Source: Escherichia phage PLYYY01
Sequence record: MZ911962.1
Length of the DNA: 57,025 bases
Reading direction: 5' to 3' (one strand)
Under the pieces are notes generated by a model, which worked only from the letters and a program-made list of their open reading frames with translations, searched no databases and had not been told where the DNA came from. The position numbers were made by a program, and so were the translations under genes. How positions within the stretch are numbered: position 1 is the first letter of the stretch; every line of letters begins with the position of its first letter. Of this stretch, positions 1,695-57,025 are shown piece by piece.

Positions 1695-4600
1695 TGGCCG
1701 AAACCGCTTCGCTAGTAATCAGAGTTGACGCGAGAGGGATTAGTACCGCGGACTCTATGTTGCGGAACTTAGCGCGTACAGGTGACACAGCGGAGCGGTC
1801 TGCTCAACGTGTTACCTCCAGCTATAAAACATTGTCTAACACATCTAACGAACTTGCAACTGTCACAAGTCGTTTAGATGCTGCAATTGTAGGAATGATT
1901 AGCGTTGACACTATTAGCCGTGTTATATCGCTATCAGACTCCTGGACCATCCTTACCAACAAACTTGAACTAGCTCGTATGGGTAATGAAACCGTTGCGG
2001 ATTCCCAGCAACGTGTATTTGATATTGCCCAGCGTTCCCGTACCAGTTTAGAAGCAACTGCAACTCTGTACTCCCGTCTCCAGCGTGCAATGAAGAATAC
2101 TGGTATGACTGGTATGGAGCTTGGACGTATCACTGAAACAATTAACAAAGCGATGATTGTTTCCGGTGCAACGTCACATGAAGCAAGCGCTGCATTGATT
2201 CAGTTTTCGCAAGCGATGGCATCCGGTGTTCTGCGTGGGGATGAATTCCGCTCTGTTGCAGAACAAGCTCCGCGCTTAACTCAAATCATGTCCGATTCTT
2301 TAGGTGTTACCATTGGACAATTGCGTGAACTAGCCTACAGCGGCAAGTTAACCGCCGATGTGGTTATCAAATCGTTGTCTGGTGCTGCGGATACAATTGA
2401 TAAAGAATTTAGCCGCACTATGCCAACGTTCAACCAGCAATGGACAGTTGCAACAAACAACCTGACTAAGTTTATGGGCGAATCCCAAAAGACTCAAGGT
2501 GCTGTTGCTGCATTGGGACAGACGTTTGTTGCATTATCCGAAAACTTAGGAACGGTTGTAACGGTTGGTTCAGCTTTAGCCACAGTAATTACCGCCCGTA
2601 TCATCACGGCAATGCTGGCCAAGACTAAAGCGTCTATAGCTGCTGCAAAAGCATCTCAGATGGAAGCTGCACAGACTGCGGCAACTACTGCGGTTATGCA
2701 AAGTTCTATTGGCGTTACCGCACAGAAAGCGGCTGCGGATCGTGCCGCTTCGCTTGCAGCGTTACAGGTTGCTCGCGGGTCATTAGCGGTTGCTAAGGGC
2801 ACGGCAGCGGAAGCAGGTGCTCGTCTTGCGCTTATTAATGCTACCCGTGCCCATTCTGCGGCAATTATGGCGGACGTACAGGCGCGGCAGGCGCTCAATG
2901 CTGCTCTTAATGCAACTGTACCAGCCGCAAGCCGGGCAGCTACAGCAATGAGCGTGCTGCGCGGTGCTATGGGGTTAATTGGTGGTCCTGTTGGTGTAGC
3001 AATGCTGGCAGCGGGTGCAATTTACTCCTATAAAGCGTCGCTGGAAGCTGGTCGTGCGGAAAACAATCAGTTTGCAGATAGTGTTGATAGTGTACGCGAA
3101 AAACTGATGCAAATGACGGAAGCTCAGCTGGCAGCTAACGCTGTCAAAGCTAGAGCAATCCTTCCGGAACTTGAAGAGCAAATGAAGCGCGAGCAAACCG
3201 CTCTTAAATCTGCAACGGAAACGCAGAAGTTCTATGAAGCACAATTGAAGCGTCGAGCTGAATCCGGTCGAGATACTGCTAGTGCGGAAAAGAACTTACA
3301 GATTGCTACGGATAACGTCAAGCTAGCTGCTGAACGCGCGGAAGACGCACAACGTCGATATAACAATGTGCTTGAAATGACAAGCCCCGCTATCGAGAAG
3401 ATAATCCCGTTAGCTCGTCAGCTTGCTGCTGATATGAAGGCTGTTCTTAACATCAAATCCGGTCCGCTTATTGACGAGAAAGTTCTTGATCGTTTTAAAA
3501 CTCAGCTAGGTGACGTTAACCGTGAGATTGACGTTAACGCTGTTAAGGGTGCTGGTAATGCTCGTCAATCTGCAATCCTTAGAGGTCTGTATCAAACACT
3601 AGGTAAAGATGCAGACACCTACGGAAGTCTGATTCGCAAAGTAGCTATGGGTCAGGACGTTAGCTCAGAGGCAACAAGCGAGTCCGCTAAAGAGCTTGTT
3701 AAATATGCTCAAGATTTAGCCCAAGCTCTTGGCAAAAACTACGATCTTGAAGAAGCAGAGAGAAACCGGACTAAAGCTACAAAAGACGCTATTAAGGCAG
3801 ATCAACAAAACGCTAAGGTTATTGACGATTTACGAAACAAGCTTAACGAAGTAACCACAGGGGTTAAGGAAAACGCCAAAGCGAAAGCGCAAGCGGTAGC
3901 ACTTAATAAGCTCAATGCGTCTGCAACGGCTGCGGAAAAAGCGGAAGTTGTTAGACTTGCTGCTGCAATCTACGATGCAGAAGAAGCTCAAAAGAAACTG
4001 GACGAGCGTAAGAAGAATCGTAAGTTTGCTCAGGGTCTGTTAGATGAAGGTATGACAGACTATGAAAAAATCGCGTACGAGCAAAATACAAAGATTGCAG
4101 AGCTTAATGCAAAACAACGAGCCGATGATCTAGCTTACTATCAGCTTTACGAAGATGCTAAAACACAAGTCCTGAAGAAAGCAAGTATGGAAAGGGAAAA
4201 CCTGGATAAAGTTCTTATGAACAGGATGATATCCTTTTCTCAAGAATCGTTGGGTGTTATATTGTCAGGTCTGGAAGAAGGTGTTAGTAAACAGAACTTT
4301 ATTTATAAAGCAATGTTTGCAGCACAGAAAGCAATGCAAATTCCCTCAATTCTTGCTAACACGGAAACAGCGGCATCTGCGGCGCTTGCGTGGGGTACAC
4401 AGCAAGGCGGTGCTACAATGGGCGCAGCTATGGCTGGTATAGTAAAAGCTATGGGTTATGCGTCGGCTGCTACTGTGGGTGGCTTAGCAATTGCCGGCAT
4501 GGCACACGACGGTATTGATAATGTTCCGCGCGAAGGTACATGGTTATTGGATAAAGGTGAACGTGTACTTAATGCTCCGTCTAATGACAAGTTAAACCGC

Positions 4601-4810
4601 TTCCTGGATAGCCAGGCTTCACAACAAGGTGGCGTGAATATGTCCGGTGGTGTTAGCATTGTTCAGTATATCACGGTGCAAGGAAATGGCGATGCTGCAC
4701 TCACGCAAGCCATGCAGCAAGCGGCTCGTGATGGCGCGGAGCAGGGATATAATAAAGTTCTTACTGACTTTGCATCCCGAGGAACAATTCGTAGAACTGC
4801 AATGGGGTAA
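1694..4810 (+). CDS. tail tape measure protein
   Basis: 1038-aa ORF, Ala-rich with long coiled-coil-like central region and Gly-rich hydrophobic C-terminal segment; position after the G/GT chaperone. Confidence 0.85.
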   Translation: MAETASLVIRVDARGISTADSMLRNLARTGDTAERSAQRVTSSYKTLSNTSNELATVTSRLDAAIVGMISVDTISRVISLSDSWTILTNKLELARMGNETVADSQQRVFDIAQRSRTSLEATATLYSRLQRAMKNTGMTGMELGRITETINKAMIVSGATSHEASAALIQFSQAMASGVLRGDEFRSVAEQAPRLTQIMSDSLGVTIGQLRELAYSGKLTADVVIKSLSGAADTIDKEFSRTMPTFNQQWTVATNNLTKFMGESQKTQGAVAALGQTFVALSENLGTVVTVGSALATVITARIITAMLAKTKASIAAAKASQMEAAQTAATTAVMQSSIGVTAQKAAADRAASLAALQVARGSLAVAKGTAAEAGARLALINATRAHSAAIMADVQARQALNAALNATVPAASRAATAMSVLRGAMGLIGGPVGVAMLAAGAIYSYKASLEAGRAENNQFADSVDSVREKLMQMTEAQLAANAVKARAILPELEEQMKREQTALKSATETQKFYEAQLKRRAESGRDTASAEKNLQIATDNVKLAAERAEDAQRRYNNVLEMTSPAIEKIIPLARQLAADMKAVLNIKSGPLIDEKVLDRFKTQLGDVNREIDVNAVKGAGNARQSAILRGLYQTLGKDADTYGSLIRKVAMGQDVSSEATSESAKELVKYAQDLAQALGKNYDLEEAERNRTKATKDAIKADQQNAKVIDDLRNKLNEVTTGVKENAKAKAQAVALNKLNASATAAEKAEVVRLAAAIYDAEEAQKKLDERKKNRKFAQGLLDEGMTDYEKIAYEQNTKIAELNAKQRADDLAYYQLYEDAKTQVLKKASMERENLDKVLMNRMISFSQESLGVILSGLEEGVSKQNFIYKAMFAAQKAMQIPSILANTETAASAALAWGTQQGGATMGAAMAGIVKAMGYASAATVGGLAIAGMAHDGIDNVPREGTWLLDKGERVLNAPSNDKLNRFLDSQASQQGGVNMSGGVSIVQYITVQGNGDAALTQAMQQAARDGAEQGYNKVLTDFASRGTIRRTAMG

Positions 4811-4813
4811 TAT

Positions 4814-5398
4814 ATGCTCACTTGGCCCGAAGAGCTTAGACCATCTGAAATGGAATGGTATCTAGTTTCAAACGCTGTAGAATTTACAAGCCCCTTCAAT
4901 GGGGCTTCCCAAACTGTGTCCTATCCTGGATCGCGATGGGAAGCTACGCTAACCTTTAGCAATTTAAATGACTGGCAATCCAGAAAGCTTGAATCGACGT
5001 TAGCTAAACTTGATGGTAAAGCTGGTCGAATCATGCTTCAGGATTTTGGTCGATGGGGGCGTGCGCCAATCGGAGCACCTGTGGTTAATGGTGCAAACAA
5101 TACAGGGACAACTTTATCTACCAAAGGGTGGAGTCCAAACCGCAAGGTTTTATGGGAAGGGGATTACATCGCTGTAAACAATGAATTGAAATTAATAACA
5201 GAAGATGCTTGGAGCGATGCTTCCGGTAACGTAATCCTAAATATTGCACCTATGCTGAGGAGTATTCCTCCAAACGGTGCTAAGATTGAAACTCAGAAGC
5301 CACAAGGAGCTTTCCGGTTAGCAGAAAATACTAACGGAGTTAAACGTCAACCTGCTTTTAATAACTCCTTTACTTTAAAATTTTCGGAGGCATTCTAA
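4814..5398 (+). CDS. minor tail protein (lambda M-like / distal tail)
   Basis: 194-aa ORF immediately after the tape measure; call by gene order only. Confidence 0.45.
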   Translation: MLTWPEELRPSEMEWYLVSNAVEFTSPFNGASQTVSYPGSRWEATLTFSNLNDWQSRKLESTLAKLDGKAGRIMLQDFGRWGRAPIGAPVVNGANNTGTTLSTKGWSPNRKVLWEGDYIAVNNELKLITEDAWSDASGNVILNIAPMLRSIPPNGAKIETQKPQGAFRLAENTNGVKRQPAFNNSFTLKFSEAF

Positions 5399-5982: not shown

Positions 5983-6391
5983 ATTACCAGGCTGGCAGAC
6001 ACGTTTATTAACCACAGTAAAGGAGTTGTCATCGACTCCTTTCTCTTGGGGAGAAAACGATTGTTGTACGTTTGCTGCTAAATGTGTTGATGCGCAATAT
6101 GGTACTAATATCTATGAACAGATAGCTGGTAAATATACCACCGAACTTGGAAGCAGACGGTTTTCAATTGAAAAGGTTGGAACAGCTTACCTTCCAACAT
6201 TGCTGGATGCTTACCTAAGCGAGCGGGTTGATAAAAATTTTGCGCAACGCGGCGATGTGGTTACATTTGAGGGAGCATTGGGCATAACTGCTGGCATATT
6301 ATGGACTGGATATGTATGGGCTATGGGTCCGAACGGTGTGGAAACTTTCCCGCTTAATAAGATCAAAATTACGGATATTTGGAGGGTCTAA
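5957..6391 (+). CDS. tail assembly protein K-like, NlpC/P60-type cysteine peptidase fold
   Basis: ATG at 5957 preceded by GGGGGAG. Product begins MRQDSPMSKLPGW and contains the NDCC Cys motif typical of NlpC/P60-like tail proteins. The ORF-track start at 5807 would overlap the upstream gene. Confidence 0.5.
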   Translation: MRQDSPMSKLPGWQTRLLTTVKELSSTPFSWGENDCCTFAAKCVDAQYGTNIYEQIAGKYTTELGSRRFSIEKVGTAYLPTLLDAYLSERVDKNFAQRGDVVTFEGALGITAGILWTGYVWAMGPNGVETFPLNKIKITDIWRV

Positions 6392-9042
6392 TGCCACCAG
6401 CAATAATTGGAGCAGCAATAGCTTTAGGCGCATCCGCTGCCGCTGCGGCGGGCTGGATTGCTACGGGTGTAGCTTTGGCCATTGGTATGGCTGCGACTGC
6501 GGCAGGTGCTCTTTTAACTAAGACACCCAATATGAACTTTAATGCATATAAAGGCCAGCAAGAACGTAAGCAGGTTCTACGGGCAGCCGCAGCTCCTCGT
6601 ACCGTAGTATATGGGACAACCGTTGCTTCCGGTGTTATGGTGTTTGCGGAGGAACAGCCTGGAGAACAGGACGAAGATGAACTGCTGCATATGGCGTTAG
6701 TTATTGCGGGACATCCTTTGGATGGGATTGGTGATATTTGGCTTGGGGACGATCCTGTTCAAACTTTTGAAGATTATGTCACTTGGGAGTTTCATAACAA
6801 CCGTCAGACAGTAGACCCTTTCATGAAAAAGAATTGTCCTTCGTGGAAGGATGATATGATTGGAAAAGGGATTGCGTGGCTTCGTATTAGTTTTAAATTT
6901 AACGCAGAAAAATTCCCTTCAGGTTTGCCGAACGTCAAAATGCTAAAACGAGGTCGACGTATATATGACCCACGTTCCGGTCAAACTGTATTTAGTGATA
7001 ATGCTGCTTTAGTAATACTCGATTACTTCCGCACTTACCTGAAACGTAAAGACGAAAATATTAACTGGGACCAGTTTAAAGAAGCAGCTAATATCTGCGA
7101 TGAATACGTTGCTAATGCTGATGGTTCTACCGAGAAACGCTATAGGATTAATGGTGAGTTTGAAGTAGACGAAGCCCCTTCTAAGATCCTGGATGCCATG
7201 CTACAAGCTTGCGGTGGCGAACTGACATATGTAGCGGGTAAACATGGTTTGCTTGTGGGCGCATATTACGGTCCGGCTACAATGACGCTTGATGAAAGTT
7301 GCATTGCTGGGGATATTAAAATTGTTCCGGAGACTTCTTACAAGGAACGTACAAACACCATTACAGGGACATTTATCGACCCGAAGCAAAACTATGTTGA
7401 AGCTGACTTCCCTCCAGTTGTGGTTAAGGAATGGGTGGAAAAGGATGGCGGAGAAATAACTCAGGACATGGATTTCCGTTTTGTTGCCAGCGAGTACCAA
7501 GCGCAACGTTTAGCTAATATTATTTTACGTCGTAAACGTGTTGGGCGCACAATTGAAATTCCTTGCAACATGAAGGGTTATAAGTTCCGTCCAGGAATGT
7601 ATGTAAAAGTTACTATTAGTCAGATTGGCATGAAGAATGTCGAAATGCGTGTTACCAAATGGTCCTTTAATCCTAAAGGTGGAGTTACCCTTACTTTACG
7701 TCAAGACTTCCTGGAGATGTGGGACGATGCTATTGGTAAACCTATGGAGCGTCCGGATCTTGTAGATTTGCCAAGTGGTGGTGTTGCTCAACCTCAAAAC
7801 CTTCAGTACCAAATATTACAGATCAGCGATGTTGTGCAGGGGGTTTTATCCTGGACCAATATGGGGCAGGTTGCGTATAACCGCGTAGCCGTGCGACAGG
7901 GGGGTACAACTATTTGGACTGCACAAGTCCCTGGCCAAAGTGTTCGCGTTACTGGGTTGCTGCGGGGCGCGTATACAGCACATGTTCAAGCGGTATCCTA
8001 TAGCGGCGCGGTGTCACCAGAAGCCTATCTGGAATTTAATATCCAGGCGCCACCTCCGCCAACGTCTGTTGAAGTCCAACAGGGTTACTTTGCAATAAGC
8101 TTAATTCCTAAGTCAGCAGACATTTCAAACGTTAGTACACAATATGACTTCTGGACTTCTGGTGAAACAAGACTTTCTTCTGCATCTACGGATGTTGTAG
8201 AACGCGATGCAACTCGTAAAGGTATGGGTACAACATGGACTTCCGAAGGGTTGAAGAATGACCACACTTATTATTGGTACGTCCGCACTATCAACGCATT
8301 TGGATCGTCTGCATTTGTAGAAGTTGCTGCATTATGTTTCACAACAGCTACAGAACTAATGCCACAGATTGATGCAGAACTCAAAAAGACGGAAACATTC
8401 AAAGAGCTTACTGCTGAAATTACAGGCGTTAAAGATGGTGTTACCCAACTCAGTCAAACTGTAGTAGAAACTGAACAACGTTTAAGTCAAAGCATTAGCA
8501 GCGTCCAGGAAAGCCTGAACGATGTTAGCGCGACTGTACAGGAGACAAGTAAAGCAGTTGTTGATCTGGAAGGTAACGTTAACGCTCAATGGGGCGCTAA
8601 GGTACAAGTTGACAGTAAAGGGCAAAAATACGTCGCTGGTATCCAGTTAGGTATGGAGGGCTCCGGTGGTGCTGTTCAATCTTACTTCATGGTAAGCGCA
8701 AACAACTTTGCTGTTTATAACCCAACAAACAGTGTAGCAGAATTAGCCTTTGCCGTTAAGAACGGCCAAGTATTCATGAAAGCTGCATTTATTGAAAACG
8801 GTACTATTGACAGCGCTAAGATATCAAACCAAATCCAATCTACAAACTATGCTAGCGGTAGTGCTGGTTGGATGATCAATAAAAATGGTACTGCGCAGTT
8901 CAATAACGTTACTATCCGCGGGACAGTATACGCTAATGCAGGTCAATTTGGCTTTAATGGTAATGGGGGTATAACAATCAATAGTAACGGGATTACCGTT
9001 CCGCTATCCGGTGGAGGTAAGGTTGTAGTCGGTAGATGGTAA
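6379..9042 (+). CDS. tail tip / host specificity protein (lambda J-like) with N-terminal I-like hydrophobic segment
   Basis: 887-aa ORF. The C-terminal half resembles lambda J as I recall it (fibronectin-III-like repeats, YYWYVRTINAFGSSAFVEV, KYVAGIQLGMEG). The first ~60 residues are Gly/Ala-rich and hydrophobic like the C-terminus of lambda tail protein I. Confidence 0.75.
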   Translation: MEGLMPPAIIGAAIALGASAAAAAGWIATGVALAIGMAATAAGALLTKTPNMNFNAYKGQQERKQVLRAAAAPRTVVYGTTVASGVMVFAEEQPGEQDEDELLHMALVIAGHPLDGIGDIWLGDDPVQTFEDYVTWEFHNNRQTVDPFMKKNCPSWKDDMIGKGIAWLRISFKFNAEKFPSGLPNVKMLKRGRRIYDPRSGQTVFSDNAALVILDYFRTYLKRKDENINWDQFKEAANICDEYVANADGSTEKRYRINGEFEVDEAPSKILDAMLQACGGELTYVAGKHGLLVGAYYGPATMTLDESCIAGDIKIVPETSYKERTNTITGTFIDPKQNYVEADFPPVVVKEWVEKDGGEITQDMDFRFVASEYQAQRLANIILRRKRVGRTIEIPCNMKGYKFRPGMYVKVTISQIGMKNVEMRVTKWSFNPKGGVTLTLRQDFLEMWDDAIGKPMERPDLVDLPSGGVAQPQNLQYQILQISDVVQGVLSWTNMGQVAYNRVAVRQGGTTIWTAQVPGQSVRVTGLLRGAYTAHVQAVSYSGAVSPEAYLEFNIQAPPPPTSVEVQQGYFAISLIPKSADISNVSTQYDFWTSGETRLSSASTDVVERDATRKGMGTTWTSEGLKNDHTYYWYVRTINAFGSSAFVEVAALCFTTATELMPQIDAELKKTETFKELTAEITGVKDGVTQLSQTVVETEQRLSQSISSVQESLNDVSATVQETSKAVVDLEGNVNAQWGAKVQVDSKGQKYVAGIQLGMEGSGGAVQSYFMVSANNFAVYNPTNSVAELAFAVKNGQVFMKAAFIENGTIDSAKISNQIQSTNYASGSAGWMINKNGTAQFNNVTIRGTVYANAGQFGFNGNGGITINSNGITVPLSGGGKVVVGRW

Positions 9043-9045
9043 CAA

Positions 9046-10044: not shown

Positions 10045-10154
10045 TGTGGTTAAAGATGATAGGTAATATTGTTTTATATTCTAATTTAATTTACCATATT
10101 TGTATGCCATAGTGCATCCATTAATTGATCAACTCTGCGAGACAAGAGGTAAAA

Positions 10155-12707
10155 ATGGCAACTCGTTTATATGGTGTTTTGCTTGACGGATTAAAAAAAC
10201 CAATCGTTAACGCAACGGTTGTCCTCTTAGCAAAAGGGAACACAATAACAGTCCTTAACGGTAGCGAAGCAATCTTTAACACCGATGCTCAAGGCGCTTA
10301 TAATATCACAGTACAGCCTGGTTACTATAAAGTGATCATAGGTCCACAAGGTATTGAACCCTATAAAGCTGGGGAAATTGCAATATATGCTGACAGCCTG
10401 GAAGGCTCGCTTAATAGCTATTTGGTCAACTGGGCAGAAGAAGATTTAACCCCTGAAGTTATTAAACAAGTTAAAGAGCTTGTAGCAATCTCAGAAGAAT
10501 ACTCGCTTCAAGCTGGGCGTTCTGCTGCTGCGGCACAAGCTGATGCTACAGATGCTCGCAATAGCAAGGCTTCCGCTGCCCAATCCGCTTCAGATGCTCT
10601 TGTCTATAAGAATGATTCTAAGACTAATGCTGATGTAGCTAAACAAGCACAAGCTGGAGCTGCTGGGTCTGCTAACACTGCCAGTGCAGCTTTAACCACG
10701 ATTCAAGGTATTCAAAAGGATGTTACCGCATCCAAGGACCGCGCTGTAACGGCAGAAACCAATGCTATGTCCAGCGAGACTGTGGCTACGCAAGCTAAAA
10801 CCGACGCTGTTACTGCTAAAGATCAAGCTATAGCTGCTAAGGATAAAGCTCAACAAATTGCAAATTCAATAGACCCTCAATCAATTAAAAATTCTATAGG
10901 TCTTGGTGTTGAAAGACGCTACCTTTCGGATCTAACAAAGCCTTTCTCAGATGTTGGTTTTTTCATGATCAACTCTAGTACGATTGGGTATCCTTCTATA
11001 GCTGACCAATCAGCTATGTCCGGTTATGTAGCAAGGCAGGATGGTTCACCTTCCTATACGGGACTGTTTGTAGATCCTGGTCATGGTCACGCTTACACCA
11101 TGACGCAATTTAATAATGTTGCAACATTCCGCCAATTAACTTTCTCCGCAGATGTTGATAGAATTAAACAACTATCCTCAGGTACTCGCGTTTACGGCGG
11201 CCCTCAAGATGAACGTTATTTTGAAATTCACACTGGTGCATGGGGTGTTTATAACGTAACACAAAAGAAATGGCTGCCATTAGCCATTCAACAAGGCGGA
11301 ACTGGAGCTGTTAGTGCGGACGATGCATTGAAGAACATTGGTGGGTTCAAAATGCAAAGGGCGTCCCTTTATACAGAAAATTTAAATGATATTACAGGAT
11401 CCAAATGCGGCGTCTATTTTCAAAGTAGCAGTGCTAATGCGTCCAAGGATAGAAACTACCCTGTACAAGTAGCGGGTGTTTTACTCGTATACGCAAGTTT
11501 TGCGAACGGTCCTGAAAGTTGCATACAAGAATATATAGAATATAACACAGGGACAAGATATATAAGAGCTTACAATGTGGGGCCTGGTACTTGGACCCAA
11601 TGGAAGAATGTTGTAGTAGCTGGTCAAAATATAACATTTGCAGGAGTAACCACACGGGGACAGGATACCACATCCAGTTCATTTGTAAGCCAAGTTACAA
11701 ATGCTTCCGGAACTACTATCGGACAGTTTGAAGCAAGAGCAGACACGACTGGAAACGCTTCCCTTATAGTTCGGGATCTTAGCGGTTCCAATTCTAGATT
11801 TTACACATTAAATTTAAACGGGAGTTTTGACGCGCCTGAAGGTTATGCGCTAAAAACAACCTCTGACTGGAATGCATTATTGAATGTGAACGCATCATCC
11901 TTCAAAATGGTTTCCGGTCCAACAAACTCACCAGTTGAAACCGTCAACTATGGTGGGTTCCACCTAAGCTTTAGCGGTAATTACGGCGTCCAGTTTGCTG
12001 GCAGAAATAATGATTACATGCTTCGTGGAATTGAGGCCGGGGAGTATTCCGACTGGAACAGAATTATAGTTGGTACTAAAGCAAAATATATACCTTTCGA
12101 TTCCCGAGATGGTTTTATTAGCGACAATGACGGTAACACCACATGGGCTCCTAGCAATGGGGGCGGTTTCCAAGCCAGTTATGCGGAAAACCGCATTATG
12201 CAAGGATGGATTGATGGAGCTGGTCGTCTTTATGGTCGCTTCTTAACGTCAGATCAGGCAACAACTCCAAAAACCGATGTAGCTTGGAAGAGTTCCGCAA
12301 TGTTGGAGCTGGATAACAGATTCACAGGAACCAATACATTTATCGGGGATGTTGCGTGCAGTGCAGCTAACCCGTTGCGATTAAGATCGGGGAACCCGAC
12401 AATATCATTTGTTGAGTCCGACGCAAGCGAATCTACTTATTTATTTGTAGCAGATGGCGGGGGCTTTAGACTTAACAGGGATACCACAGCTGGAGCAGAA
12501 TTGTTCAGCTACAGCAGATCCCAAAACAATTTAAAGCTGGGAGTAAGCTCGTATTTCACCTTAAACACAAGATTTGATCAAGGCTGGACGTCTAAAGGTT
12601 CCGTAGATGTAACTACTACAGGCTATAGCACAGTCTCGGTTATTACAACGTCTTCTACAGACGCTGTTGGTGCACGAAACCAATTTGAACATCGAGCGTC
12701 AAGCTGA
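10155..12707 (+). CDS. tail fiber protein
   Basis: ATG at 10155 preceded by AGAGG (ORF-track start 10125 is less likely). About 850 aa with an N-terminal Ala/Ser/Thr/Gln-rich repetitive coiled region and a long beta-rich C-terminal part; follows the J-like gene. Confidence 0.65.
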   Translation: MATRLYGVLLDGLKKPIVNATVVLLAKGNTITVLNGSEAIFNTDAQGAYNITVQPGYYKVIIGPQGIEPYKAGEIAIYADSLEGSLNSYLVNWAEEDLTPEVIKQVKELVAISEEYSLQAGRSAAAAQADATDARNSKASAAQSASDALVYKNDSKTNADVAKQAQAGAAGSANTASAALTTIQGIQKDVTASKDRAVTAETNAMSSETVATQAKTDAVTAKDQAIAAKDKAQQIANSIDPQSIKNSIGLGVERRYLSDLTKPFSDVGFFMINSSTIGYPSIADQSAMSGYVARQDGSPSYTGLFVDPGHGHAYTMTQFNNVATFRQLTFSADVDRIKQLSSGTRVYGGPQDERYFEIHTGAWGVYNVTQKKWLPLAIQQGGTGAVSADDALKNIGGFKMQRASLYTENLNDITGSKCGVYFQSSSANASKDRNYPVQVAGVLLVYASFANGPESCIQEYIEYNTGTRYIRAYNVGPGTWTQWKNVVVAGQNITFAGVTTRGQDTTSSSFVSQVTNASGTTIGQFEARADTTGNASLIVRDLSGSNSRFYTLNLNGSFDAPEGYALKTTSDWNALLNVNASSFKMVSGPTNSPVETVNYGGFHLSFSGNYGVQFAGRNNDYMLRGIEAGEYSDWNRIIVGTKAKYIPFDSRDGFISDNDGNTTWAPSNGGGFQASYAENRIMQGWIDGAGRLYGRFLTSDQATTPKTDVAWKSSAMLELDNRFTGTNTFIGDVACSAANPLRLRSGNPTISFVESDASESTYLFVADGGGFRLNRDTTAGAELFSYSRSQNNLKLGVSSYFTLNTRFDQGWTSKGSVDVTTTGYSTVSVITTSSTDAVGARNQFEHRASS

Positions 12708-12912: not shown

Positions 12913-12936
12913 TCGTTGAAGTGTGGTTAAACTAAA

Positions 12937-33591: not shown

Positions 33592-33632
33592 TTTTAGTTT
33601 CCTCTTGGGCGGATTGACCGCCGTTAATGTGG

Positions 33633-41179: not shown

Positions 41180-41234
41180 CTTCTTATCCTTAGGGCTCCC
41201 GCAGAAGCCCGTCAGTGAACAGTGTGGTTATAGA

Positions 41235-46202: not shown

Positions 46203-46595
46203 ATGCTATTAGTTGTCACCGGAGGGCGTAATTTTAAACATGTAGAGTATATTTATGCTCAACTGGATAAGTTGCATATGCAAAGAAGGATAACCACACT
46301 TCGCCACGGTGACGCTGACGGTGTTGACCGCATTTGCGCACATTGGGCGGAGCGGAACGGTATTAAGACGGAGGCGTTTCCTGCGCCGTGGGACAATCTT
46401 TCACTGCCAAATACCAAGATACGATATAACGCCAAAGGAGCTTATAATGCGCAAGCAGGCGCTTACCGTAATCAATTAATGCTGGATACTGATCCTAAAC
46501 CAGATCACGCTATTGTGTTTCCGGGCGGAGCTGGTACTATGGACATGTACAGACGGATTAAAGCATCCGGTATTCCTTACACATTAGCGGAGTAA
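46203..46595 (+). CDS. hypothetical Rossmann-like protein (SLOG/DprA-like fold suspected)
   Basis: 130-aa ORF with LLVVTGGRNF...HGDADGVD...IVFPGGAGT pattern reminiscent of nucleotide-binding SLOG-type domains. Tentative. Confidence 0.3.
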   Translation: MLLVVTGGRNFKHVEYIYAQLDKLHMQRRITTLRHGDADGVDRICAHWAERNGIKTEAFPAPWDNLSLPNTKIRYNAKGAYNAQAGAYRNQLMLDTDPKPDHAIVFPGGAGTMDMYRRIKASGIPYTLAE

Positions 46596-46598: not shown

Positions 46599-47069
46599 AT
46601 GGCTGACGTTAAAACTATTGTTGATGCAATGGACGAATCCAAAGACTGCCAACTGAAGAAGTCGTTTGAAGTAAAACAGGTTACAGAGACTCAGTTGATA
46701 AGCAACTTTGCGCGTTATTGCGGATTGGGTCGCGGGAAGGACTGGAATGGGCTCATTGTAATGCCTACATCGCAGATCCTGCTATATATCCGCAACGTTG
46801 TAGAAGATGTTCTGCGTCTTCAGGTTGAAATCGGTGATGTAGAAATTAACATGACCGCGAGCTCTACCATTGTGGTTAAATGGCAGTCGGGCGAGACACT
46901 TCGTTTAGAAGCGTGCCATTGCGCTAAGAGCTTGCATCACCTACGCGGTTGTCACTACCAGTTTGTTGGGTTTGTGCATCTACAAGGGTTAAGCGGGCGT
47001 ACGGCGATGGTAGCGCGTTTGCTGCTGCGTCCTTATAATAACGAGCCGGAAGTCATATACGAGGCATAA
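46599..47069 (+). CDS. hypothetical protein
   Basis: 156-aa ORF. Confidence 0.4.
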   Translation: MADVKTIVDAMDESKDCQLKKSFEVKQVTETQLISNFARYCGLGRGKDWNGLIVMPTSQILLYIRNVVEDVLRLQVEIGDVEINMTASSTIVVKWQSGETLRLEACHCAKSLHHLRGCHYQFVGFVHLQGLSGRTAMVARLLLRPYNNEPEVIYEA

Positions 47070-49567: not shown

Positions 49568-50024
49568 CTTCTTCGGCTTCATAAAAGCTAAGCCCCGTCT
49601 GTTTATCGAGTACCTGATGATCGGCGCGGTTGTGTTTTTATGCGGAGTGGCCGCCTACCTGTGGTCACAGAACGAGCTTAACAAATCAAATTTAAGTTTG
49701 GCTGAAGAACGTTTAACCGTTGTGGAGAAAGACAATGCAAATCTGGGCGAGGCTGTTGTATTTCTTGCTGCACAAAGGGAGAAGGACACGGACTCTTTCA
49801 AGAAACTAACTTCTGCAATTCAAGATGAACAACATAACCACAAGTTGCTTCAGGACAAGTTGCAGACACTGGAGAAAAGCAATGCCGACGTCAAAGCTTA
49901 TCTTAACGAGCGTATTCCTGATGATTTGCGCAGGTTGCTCGACGCAGACTCAACCTCCCCCAGCTCCACAGATAGTGAAGGTAAGACTACCAGCGCATCT
50001 ACTGGTGGAATGTCGGGAAGTTGA
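49548..50024 (+). CDS. i-spanin (Rz-like)
   Basis: 158-aa ORF with N-terminal transmembrane segment, coiled-coil periplasmic region and a Ser/Thr-rich C-terminus. Confidence 0.6.
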   Translation: MKMILNNFFGFIKAKPRLFIEYLMIGAVVFLCGVAAYLWSQNELNKSNLSLAEERLTVVEKDNANLGEAVVFLAAQREKDTDSFKKLTSAIQDEQHNHKLLQDKLQTLEKSNADVKAYLNERIPDDLRRLLDADSTSPSSTDSEGKTTSASTGGMSGS

Positions 50025-50765: not shown

Positions 50766-52302
50766 TAACATGCCGCGAGTAGTCTGGAAGCCACATCCAG
50801 GTTCACAGACGCTCGCTTTATCCTGTCCTGCTGATATCATTTTATACCACGGTACTCGCGGTCCTGGAAAGACGGACTGTCAGCTTATGCGTTTCCGTAA
50901 GAATGTTGGCGTAGGGTACGGTAAATTCTGGAAGGGTATTATATTCGACCGTGAATATAAAAACCTTGATGACCTTGTAACTAAGTCACAGCGTTGGTTT
51001 CCTGAATTTAAAGACGGTGCTAAATTCCTTAGTTCCAAGTCTGATTATAAATGGGTTTGGCCTACTGGGGAAGAATTGCTGTTCCGTGTTGCTTGCAAAG
51101 AAAAGGATTATTGGTCTTATCATGGTCACGAATACCCGTTTATCGGATGGAACGAATTAACAAAGTATCCGGACGGGCGTTTGTTTGAAGCAATGATGTC
51201 CTGTAACCGTTCATCCTTCCTACCCGAAGATAATCCAATTATCAATCCGGACGGTACTGTTACATATTTACCAGACATTCCTCTGGAAGTGTTTGCTACC
51301 AGTAACCCGTTTGGTGCGGGGCATAACTGGGTTAAGAAACGCTTCATTGACGCTGCACCGATGGGTAAGATACTCAGGAAAACTACGCGAGTGTTTAACC
51401 CGCGGACGCAGAAAGAGGAAGATGTGGTTACGACGCAATGTCATATCTTCGGATCTTACCGTGAGAACAAAAACCTAAGTCCGAAATATATTGCAGAGCT
51501 TATGTCTATCACAGACCCGAACAAACGCGCTGCATGGTTGGGCGGTAGCTGGGATATCACCTCCGGTGGTATGTTCGATGATCTGTGGCGTAGCACTGTT
51601 CATAAAATACGTCCATTTCCAATTCCTTCAAGCTGGAAGATTACACGTTCTTTCGACTGGGGTTCTTCAAAACCATTCTCTGTTGGCTGGTGGGCTATTA
51701 GTGATGGTTCGGATGTTGTACGTGAAGATGGTACTACATTCTCTACTGTTCGCGGTGACTTATTCCGTATTAACGAGTGGTACGGCACTAACGGTAAAAC
51801 AAACGAAGGTCTACATTTGCTGGACTCAGAGATTGCAAGCGGTATACTGGAGCGGGAATTGGCCTGGGGTATACACGATCGTGTAGTTCCTGGACCTGCG
51901 GATAACTCTATTTGGGATCTGGAGAACAATAACTCTACCGCCGCAACAATGGCGAAGAAAATCCGTCTTAACGGCAAGCTGTATAACGGCATCCATTGGA
52001 AGAGAAGTGATAAATCTGCTGGGTCGCGTAAACGCGGATGGCAGAAAATGCGTGAGTTTCTTAAAGCTGCATTGCGGGAAGATGCAAACGGTAAGCCTTT
52101 GCCGGGACCACGTGAAAATCCAGCAATGTATGTTTTCGATAACTGCAATTATTTCTTTGAACTTGTTCCAAGTCTTCCGCGCGATGAAGTAGATCAGGAC
52201 GACGTTGATACGGAATGTGAAGACCATATGGGCGATGAAGTACGTTATATGGTTCTGGATCAAGCTGTTTATACAGGTGTCGGTAAAACTATCGGTATTT
52301 AA
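50743..52302 (+). CDS. terminase large subunit
   Basis: 519-aa ORF with Walker A GTRGPGKTD and C-terminal nuclease-like acidic motifs. Confidence 0.85.
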   Translation: MELNRQPDNMPRVVWKPHPGSQTLALSCPADIILYHGTRGPGKTDCQLMRFRKNVGVGYGKFWKGIIFDREYKNLDDLVTKSQRWFPEFKDGAKFLSSKSDYKWVWPTGEELLFRVACKEKDYWSYHGHEYPFIGWNELTKYPDGRLFEAMMSCNRSSFLPEDNPIINPDGTVTYLPDIPLEVFATSNPFGAGHNWVKKRFIDAAPMGKILRKTTRVFNPRTQKEEDVVTTQCHIFGSYRENKNLSPKYIAELMSITDPNKRAAWLGGSWDITSGGMFDDLWRSTVHKIRPFPIPSSWKITRSFDWGSSKPFSVGWWAISDGSDVVREDGTTFSTVRGDLFRINEWYGTNGKTNEGLHLLDSEIASGILERELAWGIHDRVVPGPADNSIWDLENNNSTAATMAKKIRLNGKLYNGIHWKRSDKSAGSRKRGWQKMREFLKAALREDANGKPLPGPRENPAMYVFDNCNYFFELVPSLPRDEVDQDDVDTECEDHMGDEVRYMVLDQAVYTGVGKTIGI

Positions 52303-52313: not shown

Positions 52314-53810
52314 ATGGGTATTGATGCAACTCACCCGCTATATGACAAGTGGAAGGATGCATGGGTTAAGTGCAACGACTGCTATGAGGGTGAAGATAAA
52401 ATTAAGGAAGAAGGTGTTAAATATCTACCACCTTTAGCTTCCATGATTATTGATGGGATGAATAATCCTAATGATTTGGGCTTTCAACGTTGGCTTGCTT
52501 ATCGTCTGCGTGCTAACTTCCCTGACGATTATTCAAGTGCTGTTACAAACAATTTAGGTCTGCTGCACCAGAAGCCGCCTACAATCCAGCTTCCTCCTGA
52601 AATGGAGTACATGCGGGAGCTGTGTACTGCGGACGGTGAAGACATTATTGCTCTGCTACGTCGCATCAACGAAATGCAGTTAAAAAATGGACGTTTGGGC
52701 CTGCTGCTGGACTTGCCAAAAGGTGAGGATGTAAATAACAGACCGTATATTAGCGTTTATGATGCTTTATCCATTATCAACTGGGATGATGGTAAAGATG
52801 AATTAGGCAATATCAACTTGAACATGGTTGTTCTGGATGAAAGCGGGCCTGTACGTGTCAATCAGTTTGACTGGAAAGAAGAGAAGCGTTATCGCGTCCT
52901 GCAATTAGGCCCGATGGACACAGATGAAGTTGCAGGTGGAGCGGTCTACTCCCAGCATTTATTTATCAACAATACCAATTATGATGAAGGGCAAATGATT
53001 GCTCCTTATTATAAAGGTAATACGCTGGACGAAATACCTTTCCAGTTTGTTAATACAACAGATATTACACCAGCACCGGAAGCGCCTCCATTGTTGGGGC
53101 TAGCTAACATCTGCCTAAGCATGTACCGAAGCGACGCTGATTACCGTCAAAGTCTGCATATGCAGGGTCAGGACACGTTAGTTGTTGTTGGTGGCTCGGG
53201 TGAGAATGGAGATAAAGCCCCTCAGCGCATCGGTCCCGGAGCGGTCATTAACGTTGCTCTTGGGGGTGACGCTAAATATGTAGGCGTTAGCGGTGACGGT
53301 TTGTCCGAGCAACGCCTTGCCCTAGCAGCGGATAAGCAGGAAGCTCAGATTAAAGCTGGGCAGATGGTAAACAACACCAAGAGCACGCAGGAATCAGGCG
53401 AAGCTATGAAAACGCGTATTGCTGCGCGTACCGCTAGCCTGATTCGAATTGCGTATACTGGCGCGGCAGGTTTGGAAAACTTGCTGAAGGTCTGCGCTAA
53501 ATGGATGGGTGCTGATCCAGAGAAAGTTGTGGTTAAGCCTAATCTTGAATTTACCAAGAGTATGTTCAATGGTCAGGACTTTGTTCAAATTATTACTGCA
53601 CGCAACCTTAAGGCTCCGATCAGCTTGCAGTCTATTCATGGCTGGCTTGTTGATCAGGGCTTAACCACACTAAGCTTTGAAGAAGAAATGGCAATTCTTG
53701 AAGAAGAGCTTAAGAAGTGGCCTCTGCCCGATGATGCTAAAGCTGATTTAAACGCAGAGCAGCAAGTAAACAAAGATCCTAAGGAAGACGACGCTTCCGA
53801 TAAAGAATAG
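52314..53810 (+). CDS. portal protein
   Basis: 498-aa ORF immediately after the large terminase with an acidic C-terminal tail; assignment by order and size. Confidence 0.65.
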   Translation: MGIDATHPLYDKWKDAWVKCNDCYEGEDKIKEEGVKYLPPLASMIIDGMNNPNDLGFQRWLAYRLRANFPDDYSSAVTNNLGLLHQKPPTIQLPPEMEYMRELCTADGEDIIALLRRINEMQLKNGRLGLLLDLPKGEDVNNRPYISVYDALSIINWDDGKDELGNINLNMVVLDESGPVRVNQFDWKEEKRYRVLQLGPMDTDEVAGGAVYSQHLFINNTNYDEGQMIAPYYKGNTLDEIPFQFVNTTDITPAPEAPPLLGLANICLSMYRSDADYRQSLHMQGQDTLVVVGGSGENGDKAPQRIGPGAVINVALGGDAKYVGVSGDGLSEQRLALAADKQEAQIKAGQMVNNTKSTQESGEAMKTRIAARTASLIRIAYTGAAGLENLLKVCAKWMGADPEKVVVKPNLEFTKSMFNGQDFVQIITARNLKAPISLQSIHGWLVDQGLTTLSFEEEMAILEEELKKWPLPDDAKADLNAEQQVNKDPKEDDASDKE

Positions 53811-53905: not shown

Positions 53906-54778
53906 ATGAAAAAGAGTTCTGTAGCTATTAGTGTTGGTTTTGCTCTAATTAATCCACGCGCTCGCGGTGAAGGTGATGTGGAACTGGAATACGAATATGC
54001 ATCTGCGGAAGAGATCCCGGCAGAGTTTGCTGCTCTTTACGCAGAGCAGGGTGGTAAATACGTTCTTGCAAAAGTTAAAGGTGTAGCCCCTGCTGATAGC
54101 GTTCGTCGTCTGGAAAGTGCATTAGCAAAAGAACGTAACGATCATCGTCAGGTGAAGCAACAGATTAGCGCACTTGGGCGTCCGGTTGAAGAAGTTCTTG
54201 CGGACCTTGATCGTATCCCTCAACTGGAAGCTGCCGCTAACGGTAAAGGTACTCCGGAAGACATCGAAAAGATGGTTAAAGCCCGTCTTGCGCCGCTTGA
54301 GCGCCAATTGCAAACTGTTATCACCGAGCGTGACACGGTTAAGCAGGAAATTGAAGGATACCGCACTCGCGAAACTAAAGCGAAGATTAAAGATGCAGTT
54401 ATTGCCGCTGCTTCTGGTGCTAAATTGCGTCCATCTGCTATCGAAGACGCTGTAACTTATGCACAGTTGCAGATGACCGTCGACGAGAACGGCAATGTGG
54501 TTACGAAAGATGGGGCTGGTGTAACTCCTTACCTGACTCCGGCGGACTGGCTGAACGAAATCCTTCCGAAGCGTCCGCACTGGGTTGAAGGATCTGCTGG
54601 TGGCGGTGCATCTGGTCCGGGTGCTGGCGGCCATCACGGTGAAGACCCATACAGTCACGACGGCTGGAACATCTCTAAGCAGATGAACCTCTGGAAAACT
54701 AACCAATCTTTAGCTAAACGTTTAGCTGAAAAGAATGGCGTAGACCCGCTGAAGCCTGTACGTCCTGCTAAGAAATAA
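53906..54778 (+). CDS. scaffolding protein (putative)
   Basis: 290-aa ORF, Ala/Glu/Lys-rich helical-looking, between portal and major capsid genes. Confidence 0.45.
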   Translation: MKKSSVAISVGFALINPRARGEGDVELEYEYASAEEIPAEFAALYAEQGGKYVLAKVKGVAPADSVRRLESALAKERNDHRQVKQQISALGRPVEEVLADLDRIPQLEAAANGKGTPEDIEKMVKARLAPLERQLQTVITERDTVKQEIEGYRTRETKAKIKDAVIAAASGAKLRPSAIEDAVTYAQLQMTVDENGNVVTKDGAGVTPYLTPADWLNEILPKRPHWVEGSAGGGASGPGAGGHHGEDPYSHDGWNISKQMNLWKTNQSLAKRLAEKNGVDPLKPVRPAKK

Positions 54779-54792
54779 GTTGACATCCCGAC

Positions 54793-55962: not shown

Positions 55963-56031
55963 GGCTTCACTCAACGCCGCGCTGTAGTATTTTGGGGACA
56001 TTTATGTCCCCTCTTTTTTAGGAGAACAACC

Positions 56032-56355
56032 ATGCGTTATCAACGTTATGAACGACATGACTTGATGGAAAAATCGTTGCAGGTGGAGCCAATTTCGATT
56101 ACTCTCGATCCTGCTAAGATTGACACCACAACTTCAGAAGTAAAAACGGTTACTGTTAAAATAAACTTTGTCCCAGGCGGAACTACAAACAAAGCGTATA
56201 GCGCGTCAGTTGACGGTTCCTCTGCTACAATTAAAGACAACGGGGACGGTACAATTACTGTGACCACAACCGCAAGCAGTGGTACTTCAAACTTGACAGT
56301 AACGTCCAAGGCAAAGGATAGTGTTACTGGTACATGTGTTATTAATGTGACCTAA
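56032..56355 (+). CDS. Ig-like (Big_2-type) domain protein, possible head decoration
   Basis: 107-aa ORF (start may be internal Met); Thr/Ser/Val-rich beta pattern ending GTCVINVT typical of bacterial Ig-like domains. Confidence 0.45.
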   Translation: MRYQRYERHDLMEKSLQVEPISITLDPAKIDTTTSEVKTVTVKINFVPGGTTNKAYSASVDGSSATIKDNGDGTITVTTTASSGTSNLTVTSKAKDSVTGTCVINVT

Positions 56356-56371
56356 AAATAAGGATTAAACA

Positions 56372-57025
56372 ATGAAGACATTAATTGAAGCATTGTTAGA
56401 ACTTGATCCGGATAACCCGAATCATTGGACTAGCGACGGTCTACCTAAAGTTGACGCTCTGCGTTTCGCTACTGCTAACCCGTCTTTAACCCGCGACGAT
56501 ATTACAACTGCTGCTCCGCTGTTTACCCGCGATAACCGCGTGCTGGAAGAGCCAGAGCCAGTGGAACCTGTTAAATCTGCTGATCCAGTTTTACATGAAG
56601 CTGTCAAACAGGAGAAAGCTCATGAAGAACAAAAGAAAGTCGCGGTTGCAACGATGCAAATCGAAGTTAAGATTAGCGAAGCACTGCGTGCTCTTCTGGA
56701 GCCGGAAAAAATCGGTGACACTTCCAGCCTAAGCGATGAAGAGCTAAAAGCGAAGCGTGAAAAGCTTAGCGATGTGGTTAAAGAGATTGCCCACACTAAG
56801 CACGCGCTGGAGCTTGCTATTGCCGACGTTCAAGCAGATCTGGATAAGATTATCGTTGAGCAGGAAAGTCGTCGTCCTAAGTCCGGTCTTACTGCAACTC
56901 AGATGTATCTCGAGGCGCAGAAAAAACGTAAACCTGAAGACATGCTTTCTGACCATCGCTTCCAGAACCCTATTGATGATCCGGTTGCCCGTATGGTTGC
57001 ACGTAATATGATGCGTCGAGGTTAA
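56372..57025 (+). CDS. hypothetical virion-associated protein
   Basis: 217-aa ORF ending exactly at the window end with TAA; between capsid genes and (if circular) the tail tube gene. Confidence 0.4.
   Translation: MKTLIEALLELDPDNPNHWTSDGLPKVDALRFATANPSLTRDDITTAAPLFTRDNRVLEEPEPVEPVKSADPVLHEAVKQEKAHEEQKKVAVATMQIEVKISEALRALLEPEKIGDTSSLSDEELKAKREKLSDVVKEIAHTKHALELAIADVQADLDKIIVEQESRRPKSGLTATQMYLEAQKKRKPEDMLSDHRFQNPIDDPVARMVARNMMRRG

Follow-up and report, generated by a model that had tools for sequence, protein, structure and literature searches.

Introduction

Why does a single eight-base word recur throughout a phage genome, inside genes and between them, and which protein would read it? This question is raised by Escherichia phage PLYYY01 (sequence record MZ911962.1), whose DNA was analyzed here as one stretch of 57,025 bp (hereafter, the window) and in which the octamer TGTGGTTA is enriched ~20-fold. 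We consider it likely that TGTGGTTA is a strand-specific template priming site of the phage’s own NrS-1-type primase-helicase, placed at the spacing of Okazaki fragments and co-evolving with the primase. A primase recognition site was among the functions proposed when the word was first noticed in the letters of the window (hereafter, the original prediction), and this option is supported by the association of the word with the primase gene, by the homology of the enzyme to that of phage NrS-1 and by the match of the word to the published NrS-1 site.

Sequence-specific priming by NrS-1-type primase-polymerases (prim-pols) is already known. What is apparently new, in that it is not described in the literature searched, is the occurrence of such a site genome-wide, evenly and in strand alternation, through synonymous positions and with a 3′ half that co-evolves with the enzyme, in a large lytic clade. 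No description of the genome-wide enrichment of such a word was found in that literature, in which TGTGGTTA, TAACCACA, TGTGGGCA and TGTGGTCA turned up only in primers, as RUNX sites and, incidentally, in a list of ribosome-binding sites in the KL1 paper.

Enrichment of the Octamer in the Window

An exact search of both strands of the window finds 45 copies of TGTGGTTA, 27 on the plus and 18 on the minus strand (Table 1), with no significant overall strand bias. Dinucleotide shuffles (n = 100) give an expectation of 1.81 copies (standard deviation 1.4, maximum 6) and Markov models of orders 0–3 give 2.1–2.4; the original prediction had estimated about two copies, as is confirmed here, and had named the Markov-corrected expectation as a check, which proves to lie far below the observed count. 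A more stringent null, which keeps every protein sequence and the overall codon usage, shuffles synonymous codons: ~2 copies are then expected, against the 31 actually present, in the 43.4 kb of shuffled coding DNA, and across the whole window the mean is 16.1 (including 14 untouched sites) and the maximum 22, against 45. Among all words of 6 to 10 bases TGTGGTTA is the strongest outlier in the window, and the core is exactly eight bases long, TGTGGTT being found 47 times and GTGGTTA 49 times. The flanks are weakly informative, with A at −2 in 26 of the 45 copies, G at −3 in two and G at +9 in none.

The excess reported in the original prediction is therefore real and strong, its size having been understated: at least 32 copies and a 16-fold enrichment had been given, and 13 copies had been missed (plus strand: 990, 5080, 18967, 27348, 31490, 53528; minus strand: 3852, 6009, 14644, 16559, 24497, 38965, 49835). 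The starts that it did list were exact for 20 of 21 plus-strand copies, 17453 being an error for 17474, and for 9 of 11 minus-strand copies, where 19431 and 26359 should read 19430 and 26360. Two pairs of sites that were said to share 15-mers indeed do so, with true starts at 33624/42404 and 22828/24139.

The window also holds second-tier enriched words unrelated to the octamer, namely TCCGGT/ACCGGA (73 vs. 33) and ACGCAGA/TCTGCGT (25 vs. 8), whose excess is a modest 2–3-fold.

Spacing, Strand Alternation and Codon Choice

The 45 sites are spread more evenly than chance would place them. The coefficient of variation (CV) of the gaps is 0.56, compared with 0.97 for random placement (P < 1e-4), and the largest gap is 2,964 bp, where 5,415 bp would be expected (P = 0.002), the smallest being 133 bp and the density one site per 1.27 kb. 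On each strand taken separately, the mean spacing is 2.1 kb on the plus (CV 0.46) and 2.9 kb on the minus strand (CV 0.56); Okazaki fragments of bacteria and phages are typically ~1–2 kb long. Neighboring sites also tend to lie on opposite strands, with 32 switches in 44 neighboring pairs against 21.6 expected (P = 0.0008). The same pattern is found in all of the 10 complete or near-complete genomes compared, in which the gap CV is 0.51–0.74 (random, ~0.96), a site occurs every 1.1–1.9 kb and the pooled strand switches number 263 against 184.6 expected (z = 8.4). The per-strand gaps and the alternation thus agree with strand-specific use of TGTGGTTA at Okazaki scale. Two plus/minus pairs, 39803/39936 and 53528/53662, have near-identical spacing (133 and 134 bp) and are oriented for outward-diverging priming; the former, which lies among the small genes directly upstream of the primase gene, could mark an origin.

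Most copies (37 of 45, 82%) are genic, 22 in sense and 15 in antisense orientation, and the remaining eight fall in the 8.5% of the DNA that is non-coding, a ~2-fold excess. The original prediction had placed the copies in several reading frames; this does not hold for the sense copies, 21 of 22 of which share the frame xxT-GTG-GTT-Axx, encoding Val-Val, while the antisense copies do use two frames, xTA-ACC-ACA (Thr-Thr) in 10 cases and AAC-CAC (Asn-His) in five. Where Val-Val occurs in a T_ _A context it is spelled GTG-GTT in 21 of 28 instances, codon usage predicting ~7%, and Thr-Thr is written ACC-ACA 20 times against 4.4 expected. This biased spelling of the two dipeptides indicates selection on the DNA word through silent positions.

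The Word Across Phages

The window is ~97% identical to Escherichia phages OddieOddie, WildeMaa and CSP1 and belongs to the genus Seuratvirus, subfamily Queuovirinae, whose members CAjan, Seurat and 9g are siphophages in which 7-deazaguanines take the place of some of the guanine. Enrichment in close relatives, a check named beforehand in the original prediction, is clear: WildeMaa has 46 copies of TGTGGTTA, CAjan 47 and Seurat 42. In Seurat, CAjan and WildeMaa the sites of the window are conserved at 90–97%, compared with 57–67% for random 8-mers, and the per-base mismatch within the genus is 0.3–2.2% inside the word and 6.5–8.5% genome-wide. In 9g, which belongs to another genus, only 2 of 12 aligned sites are retained and the density is kept; there the top word is TGTGGTCA, with 34 copies, and TGTGGTTA has 18.

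The top 8-mer was then sought de novo in progressively more distant phages that have a homologue of the window primase. It is TGTGGTTA itself in Pantoea phage Vid5 (41 copies vs. 3.1 expected), TGTGGTCA in Pseudomonas phage PaMx25, of 58% GC (33 vs. 1.1), TGTGGGCA in Pseudomonas phage 73 (19 vs. 0.3; TGTGGGC, 30 vs. 1.3), in E. coli phage Halfdan (20 vs. 0.2, with no copy of TGTGGTTA) and in Acinetobacter phage Ab_SZ3 (23 vs. 1.0), and TTGTGGGT in the Salmonella myovirus SE4 (31 vs. 1.9), while Vibrio phage 033B has 20 copies of TGTGGTCA and 17 of TGTGGCCA. Altogether, a TGTGG-type word ranks first in 12 of 12 named phages with the full-length primase-helicase family, whatever their host or GC content. 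The same core emerges from environmental data: in 63 independent viral contigs with the primase family, each 10 kb or longer and 1.11 Mb in total, TGTGG..A leads the 1,024 five-base cores (1,046 vs. 443 expected), with its reverse complements in second and third place, and 50 of the 63 loci show at least 2-fold enrichment. When the triplets following TGTGG were counted in 72 pooled sources, with no assumption on the 3′ end, TCA (z = 54), TTA (37.5), GCA (22.7) and CCA (10.6) stood out, giving a family consensus TGTGG-N-Y-A with A favored at −2.

Other top 7- and 8-mers also occur in genomes with the primase family: GCCTGGG/GCCCAGG in three contigs, GGCTTGCC in PaMx25 (21 vs. 3.4) and, in one contig each, CTGTGAT (20 vs. 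3.6), GATTTTC (28 vs. 2.8) and TTGTTAG (37 vs. 10.9). These divergent words, a few of which contain GTGA, the other NrS-1 site, could represent tandem repeats or terminator stems, or else alternative recognition words of those lineages.

The word, then, travels with a phage gene set and not with the host. Halfdan and the Seuratviruses share E. coli K-12 and carry different words, which excludes host readers such as RecBCD (through Chi) and DnaA. The module common to the positive phages, that is, those with the enriched word, comprises the primase, a superfamily 2 (SF2) helicase, a Cas4/RecB-type exonuclease, a Sak4 ATPase, a DNA polymerase and a clamp, and in a phylogenetic profile the only window genes with homologues in 8 of 8 non-Seuratvirus positives are portal, primase, Sak4, exonuclease, helicase and clamp. 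Two phages separate these genes: in Moraxella phage Mcat25 and Salicola phage CGphi29 the exonuclease, helicase and Sak4 all have homologues, but in both tblastn and profile searches found no member of the window primase family and counting found no TGTGG enrichment, nor any other strongly enriched 8-mer. Presence of the word thus follows the primase gene, in 12 of 12 named phages with the full-length family and 50 of 63 environmental loci, against 0 of 2 phages with the recombination module and no member of this primase family. Among enzymes that could plausibly read sequence, the primase alone is universal in the positives and absent from both negatives, in which Sak4, the exonuclease and the helicase also occur. 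Because the distribution of the primase matches that of the word, we propose it as the reader.

The Primase-Helicase and Its Relation to NrS-1

The proposed reader is a protein of 778 residues which, judged from sequence and profile matches, is an archaeo-eukaryotic primase (AEP) prim-pol of the NrS-1 type and not a DnaG-type primase. Its N-terminal 200 residues align, as a single sequence, with the solved NrS-1 prim-pol domain (E ~2e-7), and a family profile built without NrS-1 matches the NrS-1 N300 structures over positions 9–256, covering the core and the helix-bundle domain, with E = 3e-40. The AEP catalytic motifs, the metal-binding DxD and the SxH motif, are conserved across the aligned primases: IDLD and SGLGVH of the window primase align with IDLD and SGDGLH of NrS-1; D76, S114, S116, G119 and H121 do not vary in an alignment that includes NrS-1 (A1), where D78 is nearly invariant, and in a second one (A2) D78 and H121 are invariant. 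The helix-bundle match to Pfam PF22763 is marginal in the window (28.4 bits, cutoff 27.9) and reaches 34.8 bits in the phage 73 orthologue, and the C-terminal DUF3987 scores 47 bits. The helicase halves belong to different Pfam families, NrS-1 having DUF5906 with head and tail domains in place of DUF3987, and align with few invariant residues (K438, F520, N550). The primase of SE4, whose N-terminal half looks unrelated by BLAST, is a full-length member of the family by hhalign (probability 99.7%, E = 3e-26). In 9g, gp26 (21992–22231, minus strand), annotated as a hypothetical protein, starts with MLELFPQEIKQYEQWAV, the conserved N-terminus of the primase family; the primase gene of 9g is therefore split in its record, and the break, upstream of gp25, reflects either a frameshift or an error of sequencing.

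Primer synthesis by the NrS-1 enzyme is “largely dependent on one 8-nt recognition sequence” (PMC7102993). The recognition sequences reported are 5′-TTTGGTTA-3′ and, more efficient, 5′-GTGG/GTGA-3′, in which GTG is essential; the helix-bundle domain binds the site, initiation takes place at the first template base 5′ of it, and an efficient template, T19, reads 5′-(T)14TTGTGGTT-3′ (PMC8718748). TGTGGTTA is identical to TTTGGTTA at 7 of 8 positions, contains GTGG and has TGTGGTT in common with T19; by our own arithmetic, a random 8-mer would fall within one mismatch with a chance of ~4e-4.

In the NrS-1 genome itself the top 6-mer is GTGGTT (31 vs. 11), and the copies of TTTGGTTA and TGTGGTTA sit in an origin-like iteron cluster directly after the primase gene. 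This cluster (17060–17440) has 11 copies, in both orientations, of the iteron AGTGTAACC/GGTTACACT, and includes TTTGGTTA (17198, minus), TGTGGTTA (17210, minus; 17438, plus) and GTGGTTA (17165, plus); it is probably the replication origin. The 8-mer has been described as present in two copies at the genome center, the proposed origin (PMC7102993), and the cluster is richer than those “two copies of the 8-nt site” suggest. Genome counts for NrS-1 are four for TTTGACCA/TGGTCAAA and one for TTTGGTTA, and the template oligonucleotide of PMC7102993 ends in CCCGTTTGACCATT-3′ and lacks TTTGGTTA, though it is said to contain the 8-nt site.

Proposed Mechanism

From these comparisons we infer that the window primase would bind the word, prime there in vivo and serve lagging-strand synthesis. 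At the fork, the primase-helicase would read the word on the exposed single strand of template and begin a primer on the word or beside it; the separate DNA polymerase and its clamp would extend this primer. Initiation might take place 5′ of the site, as in NrS-1, or inside the site with a cryptic 3′ base, the latter being conceivable because the invariant pyrimidine-A at positions 7–8 suits a cryptic 3′ base such as those of T7 and T4. Since an 8-nt site would arise only ~2 times by chance in 57 kb, the ~45 copies would have been selected, mostly through synonymous codons, until each strand was tiled every 2–3 kb, on the scale of Okazaki fragments. Co-evolution of word and primase would then have led to the family consensus TGTGG-N-Y-A.

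Several observations weigh against this proposal. The NrS-1 polymerase and the window primase are only ~17% identical overall, and the specificity of NrS-1 is reportedly flexible, with GTG as the minimal site (PMC8718748); moreover, its 8-nt site is spelled inconsistently, as TTTGGTTA (PMC8718748) and in an oligonucleotide ending in GTTTGACCATT (PMC7102993). The DNA polymerase and the clamp co-occur with the positives and are inseparable from the primase by presence or absence. When word variants were compared with primase columns for co-variation across 15 non-redundant sequences, the helix-bundle domain contributed four of the top 40 columns, against four expected; the helicase half contributed 27 against 18.5 expected. 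The base at −1, 5′ of the site, is not pyrimidine-rich, contrary to a purine-initiated synthesis starting there. No strand bias relative to an identifiable origin was found in the window, where GC-skew switches coincide with changes in the direction of transcription, so that skew does not locate the origin. Finally, a genome-wide use of the word would be an extrapolation from NrS-1, whose sites cluster, and the word is not tiled in the genomes of NrS-1 and phi105, which have related prim-pol domains. These two phages are temperate, their prim-pol being the sole replicase or lacking the family helicase half, and the absence of tiling from them agrees with the idea that tiling arises where the enzyme acts as lagging-strand primase for a dedicated replicase.

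Alternative Readers of the Word

Over-represented, strand-specific words present on both strands are equally the mark of Chi-like signals, and TGTGGTTA might be read on single-stranded DNA by the phage exonuclease and SF2 helicase, or by a host nuclease, to switch degradation to recombination and protect the phage DNA from both ends. Homologues of the exonuclease, helicase and Sak4 ATPase occur in all positive genomes, and genes for a RecB-like protein and a helicase are found in NrS-1 as well; however, Mcat25 and CGphi29 have the exonuclease (48% and ~38% identity) and the helicase and no enriched TGTGG word. Host RecBCD is excluded as the reader, because the E. coli Chi, GCTGGTGG, has only three copies in the window and because of two phages of E. 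coli K-12 the Seuratvirus type has TGTGGTTA and Halfdan has TGTGGGCA and no TGTGGTTA; the original prediction was right that the word is not Chi. A published specificity ties the homologue of the primase to this sequence (PMC8718748) and none ties a Cas4-type nuclease to it, and we regard a Chi-like role as unlikely. Equally improbable, in our judgment, are duplex sites for another phage protein, such as a nucleoid-organizing, transcription or helicase-loading factor, for which the candidates are a small helix-turn-helix (HTH) protein (39629–39844), an AP2-like open reading frame (ORF; 39358–39657) and a DUF7173 protein (33633–34103). A small HTH-like gene does adjoin the primase gene in most positive phages, and the excess of intergenic sites would suit a duplex binder. 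Such a binder predicts neither the strand alternation nor the per-strand regularity (z = 8.4), though, and 82% of the sites are genic, in both orientations relative to transcription. All three candidates were rejected on their phylogenetic distribution: homologues of the AP2-like ORF are absent from all other positive genomes, WildeMaa, CAjan and Seurat included, the small proteins encoded upstream of the primase belong to two or more families that BLAST does not connect and have only sub-threshold Pfam matches, and DUF7173 is absent from Halfdan, Ab_SZ3, Vibrio 033B and SE4. The suggestion of an AP2/HTH-like binder encoded at 39358–39844 is not supported, relatives without the AP2-like ORF bearing sites at the same density.

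Sites of a phage nicking enzyme, which would leave the virion DNA with site-specific breaks in one strand like those known from T5 or tf-like Pseudomonas phages, would resemble the word in being conserved 8–9-mers that are clade-enriched and mostly genic (PMC11780129), and relatives encode HNH endonucleases (CAjan gp67). Nevertheless, the known nick motif WACTRTGAC is unrelated and has ~13 copies in each genome, most of them on a single strand and grouped towards one end (PMC11780129), the opposite of ~45 evenly spaced and strand-alternating sites; no nicking enzyme is universal in the positive genomes, the text of a nanopore study of native CAjan DNA does not contain the word “nick” (PMC7544227), and we hold nicking to be very improbable. 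Like packaging and a Chi-like role, it accords poorly with the distribution and the comparative data. We give still less credence to the idea that the word is a target or anti-target of 7-deazaguanine (dPreQ0) modification by DpdA, or owes its form to host factors such as DnaA. Within the word lies GGTT, a context of slightly raised modification signal in CAjan, where an unexplained partial shift was seen at GGT and especially GGTT (PMC7544227). Only 47 of the 569 GGTT sites of CAjan fall in TGTGGTTA, however, so the octamer alone cannot explain that signal; the modification contexts of CAjan are GA and GGC, whereas the guanines of TGTGGTTA stand in GT and GG contexts and its complement has none. 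Furthermore, queuosine and DpdA genes are lacking from phage 73, Halfdan, Ab_SZ3 and SE4, four phages that nevertheless carry a TGTGG-type word at the same density. As for DnaA, whose box has the consensus 9-mer TTATNCACA, the extended form TTAACCACA seen in 23 of the 45 copies differs from the box TTATCCACA by one mismatch, at position 4; the extra T is confined to those 23 copies, the Halfdan variant TGCCCACA, from the same host, is further from the consensus, and host factors in general are contradicted by words that differ between phages of one host. That the word is not a perfect DnaA box had been recognized in the original prediction. TGTGGTTA thus matches none of the host Chi, DnaA box, DpdA motif and nick motif.

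Genomic Context

In the window, rightward genes occupy 1–14.2 kb (tail) and 42.7–57 kb (early genes, lysis, terminase and head), and a leftward block at 14.4–42.2 kb encodes the DNA polymerase, clamp, DpdA and queuosine proteins, helicase, exonuclease and primase (Table 1). The AP2-like ORF is inserted between the conserved HTH gene and the primase gene and, having no homologue in WildeMaa, CAjan, Seurat or other relatives, looks like a genome-specific insertion, possibly the remnant of a homing-endonuclease-type element.

Table 1. Positions of the octamer, of the proposed reader with its domains, and of other genes in the window. All TGTGGTTA sites were located by exact search.
Feature	Position	Strand	Remarks
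TGTGGTTA site	990..997	+	Val-Val frame
TGTGGTTA site	2359..2366	+	Val-Val frame, tape measure gene
TGTGGTTA site	3852..3859	-	antisense, Thr-Thr
TGTGGTTA site	5080..5087	+	
TGTGGTTA site	6009..6016	-	
TGTGGTTA site	6256..6263	+	
TGTGGTTA site	7419..7426	+	
TGTGGTTA site	10045..10052	+	intergenic
TGTGGTTA site	11647..11654	-	
TGTGGTTA site	12922..12929	+	intergenic
TGTGGTTA site	14644..14651	-	
TGTGGTTA site	15775..15782	+	
TGTGGTTA site	16559..16566	-	within DNA polymerase gene
TGTGGTTA site	17474..17481	+	
TGTGGTTA site	18076..18083	-	
TGTGGTTA site	18967..18974	+	
TGTGGTTA site	19430..19437	-	within DpdA gene
TGTGGTTA site	21334..21341	-	
TGTGGTTA site	22832..22839	+	
TGTGGTTA site	23011..23018	-	
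TGTGGTTA site	24143..24150	+	
TGTGGTTA site	24497..24504	-	
TGTGGTTA site	26360..26367	-	
TGTGGTTA site	27348..27355	+	
TGTGGTTA site	28813..28820	-	
TGTGGTTA site	31490..31497	+	
TGTGGTTA site	33628..33635	+	intergenic
TGTGGTTA site	34169..34176	-	
TGTGGTTA site	35553..35560	+	intergenic
TGTGGTTA site	37623..37630	+	within primase gene, antisense
TGTGGTTA site	38389..38396	+	within primase gene, antisense
TGTGGTTA site	38965..38972	-	within primase gene; sole sense copy in Leu-Trp-Leu frame
TGTGGTTA site	39803..39810	+	plus/minus pair with 39936, 133 bp
TGTGGTTA site	39936..39943	-	paired with 39803
TGTGGTTA site	41223..41230	+	intergenic
TGTGGTTA site	42408..42415	+	intergenic, divergent-transcription region
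TGTGGTTA site	43926..43933	+	
TGTGGTTA site	46291..46298	-	
TGTGGTTA site	46871..46878	+	
TGTGGTTA site	49835..49842	-	
TGTGGTTA site	51423..51430	+	terminase large subunit gene
TGTGGTTA site	53528..53535	+	plus/minus pair with 53662, 134 bp
TGTGGTTA site	53662..53669	-	paired with 53528
TGTGGTTA site	54496..54503	+	
TGTGGTTA site	56773..56780	+	
Primase-helicase, 778 aa (proposed reader)	37000..39336	-	Pfam PF22763, PF13148; PDB matches to NrS-1 N300
AEP prim-pol catalytic core	38737-39336	-	~aa 1-200
NrS-1-type helix-bundle domain	38512-38736	-	~aa 201-275
DUF3987 P-loop helicase	37297-38316	-	~aa 341-680
DNA polymerase	16005-18044	-	annotation of collinear WildeMaa and CAjan
Sliding clamp/processivity factor	17990-18943	-	annotation of collinear WildeMaa and CAjan; in all positive genomes
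SF2 helicase	26319-28301		leftward block
Cas4/RecB-type exonuclease	28298-29206		leftward block
DUF7173 protein	33633-34103		
AP2-like small ORF	39358-39657	-	Pfam AP2 E = 2.5e-4, below threshold
Small HTH protein gene	39629-39844		just upstream of primase

Significance

Primase sites are usually regarded as short, abundant and evolutionarily invisible, while the selection acting on the 8-nt site of the window appears to be strong and can be measured. The site fixes how dozens of Val-Val and Thr-Thr dipeptides are spelled, keeps its positions within a genus and changes them, at constant density, between genera, and its 3′ half changes with the primase. If the proposed role is true, lagging-strand initiation and the starts of Okazaki fragments would be predictable from sequence across a phage clade, and a natural series of primases and sites (TTA, TCA, CCA, GCA, GTA) would be at hand for studying how AEP prim-pols read their template, a matter left open by the structural papers on NrS-1. 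The 8-nt site of NrS-1, hitherto regarded as a rare origin signal, would be reframed. There would also be a constraint on the engineering of therapeutic coliphages of this group, in which silent recoding could destroy priming sites.

A broader proposal, which we put forward tentatively and hold to be possible rather than probable, is that lytic phages spanning many hosts carry a lineage-specific “priming grid” of 8–10 nt (A-N-TGTGG-N-Y-A), written at synonymous sites every 2–3 kb on each strand, which would fix the Okazaki starts of the prim-pol and co-evolve with the specificity of the enzyme. The group would comprise Queuovirinae, Vidquintavirus, Lokivirus, Septimatrevirus, Loughboroughvirus and many uncultured relatives. 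As the word is rare by chance, such a grid would confine efficient priming to the phage’s own DNA, a form of self-recognition at the level of replication.

Comparison With Known Systems

The closest known system is the NrS-1 polymerase, a homologous enzyme in which the AEP prim-pol core is followed by a helix-bundle domain and, at the C-terminus, by a helicase of hexameric type that Pfam assigns to another family than that of the window protein, and whose site is read on a single-stranded template and is near-identical in sequence (TTTGGTTA and GTGG, compared with TGTGGTTA). The two systems differ in that the word of the window is genome-wide, even and on both strands, whereas the sites of NrS-1 are clustered, and in that phages of the window type are lytic, with a separate DNA polymerase and clamp and with DUF3987 instead of DUF5906 and the head and tail domains.

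Strand-specific template signals for lagging-strand priming are also used by T7 gp4, at 5′-GTC-3′, and by T4 gp61, at 5′-GTT/GCT-3′, with a cryptic 3′ base, and the pyrimidine-A at the end of the family consensus resembles an initiating base followed by such a cryptic base. These enzymes, however, are DnaG/TOPRIM primases unrelated to AEP prim-pols, and their sites of 3–5 nt are frequent by chance and, to our knowledge, are not written into the genome by selection, unlike the 8-nt, ~20-fold enriched and positionally conserved site of the window. In another AEP prim-pol, ORF904 of plasmid pRN1, the helix-bundle domain recognizes 5′-GTG-3′, as summarized from Boudet et al. (2019) in PMC8718748. 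The likeness lies in a helix-bundle domain that reads a GTG-containing motif, GTG being found inside TGTGG; the differences are that ORF904 is a plasmid replicase and that its site has 3 nt. We know of no genome-wide tiling for ORF904.

As regards the way in which the word is written, the nearest parallels are Chi (GCTGGTGG), the FtsK-orienting polar sequences (KOPS) and the DNA uptake sequences, highly over-represented 8–10-mers that are fitted into genes by the choice of codons and evolve together with a dedicated reader protein. They serve other readers and functions and are features of host chromosomes with a strong replication-strand skew, in contrast to the word of the window, whose strands alternate and whose proposed reader is encoded by the phage itself.

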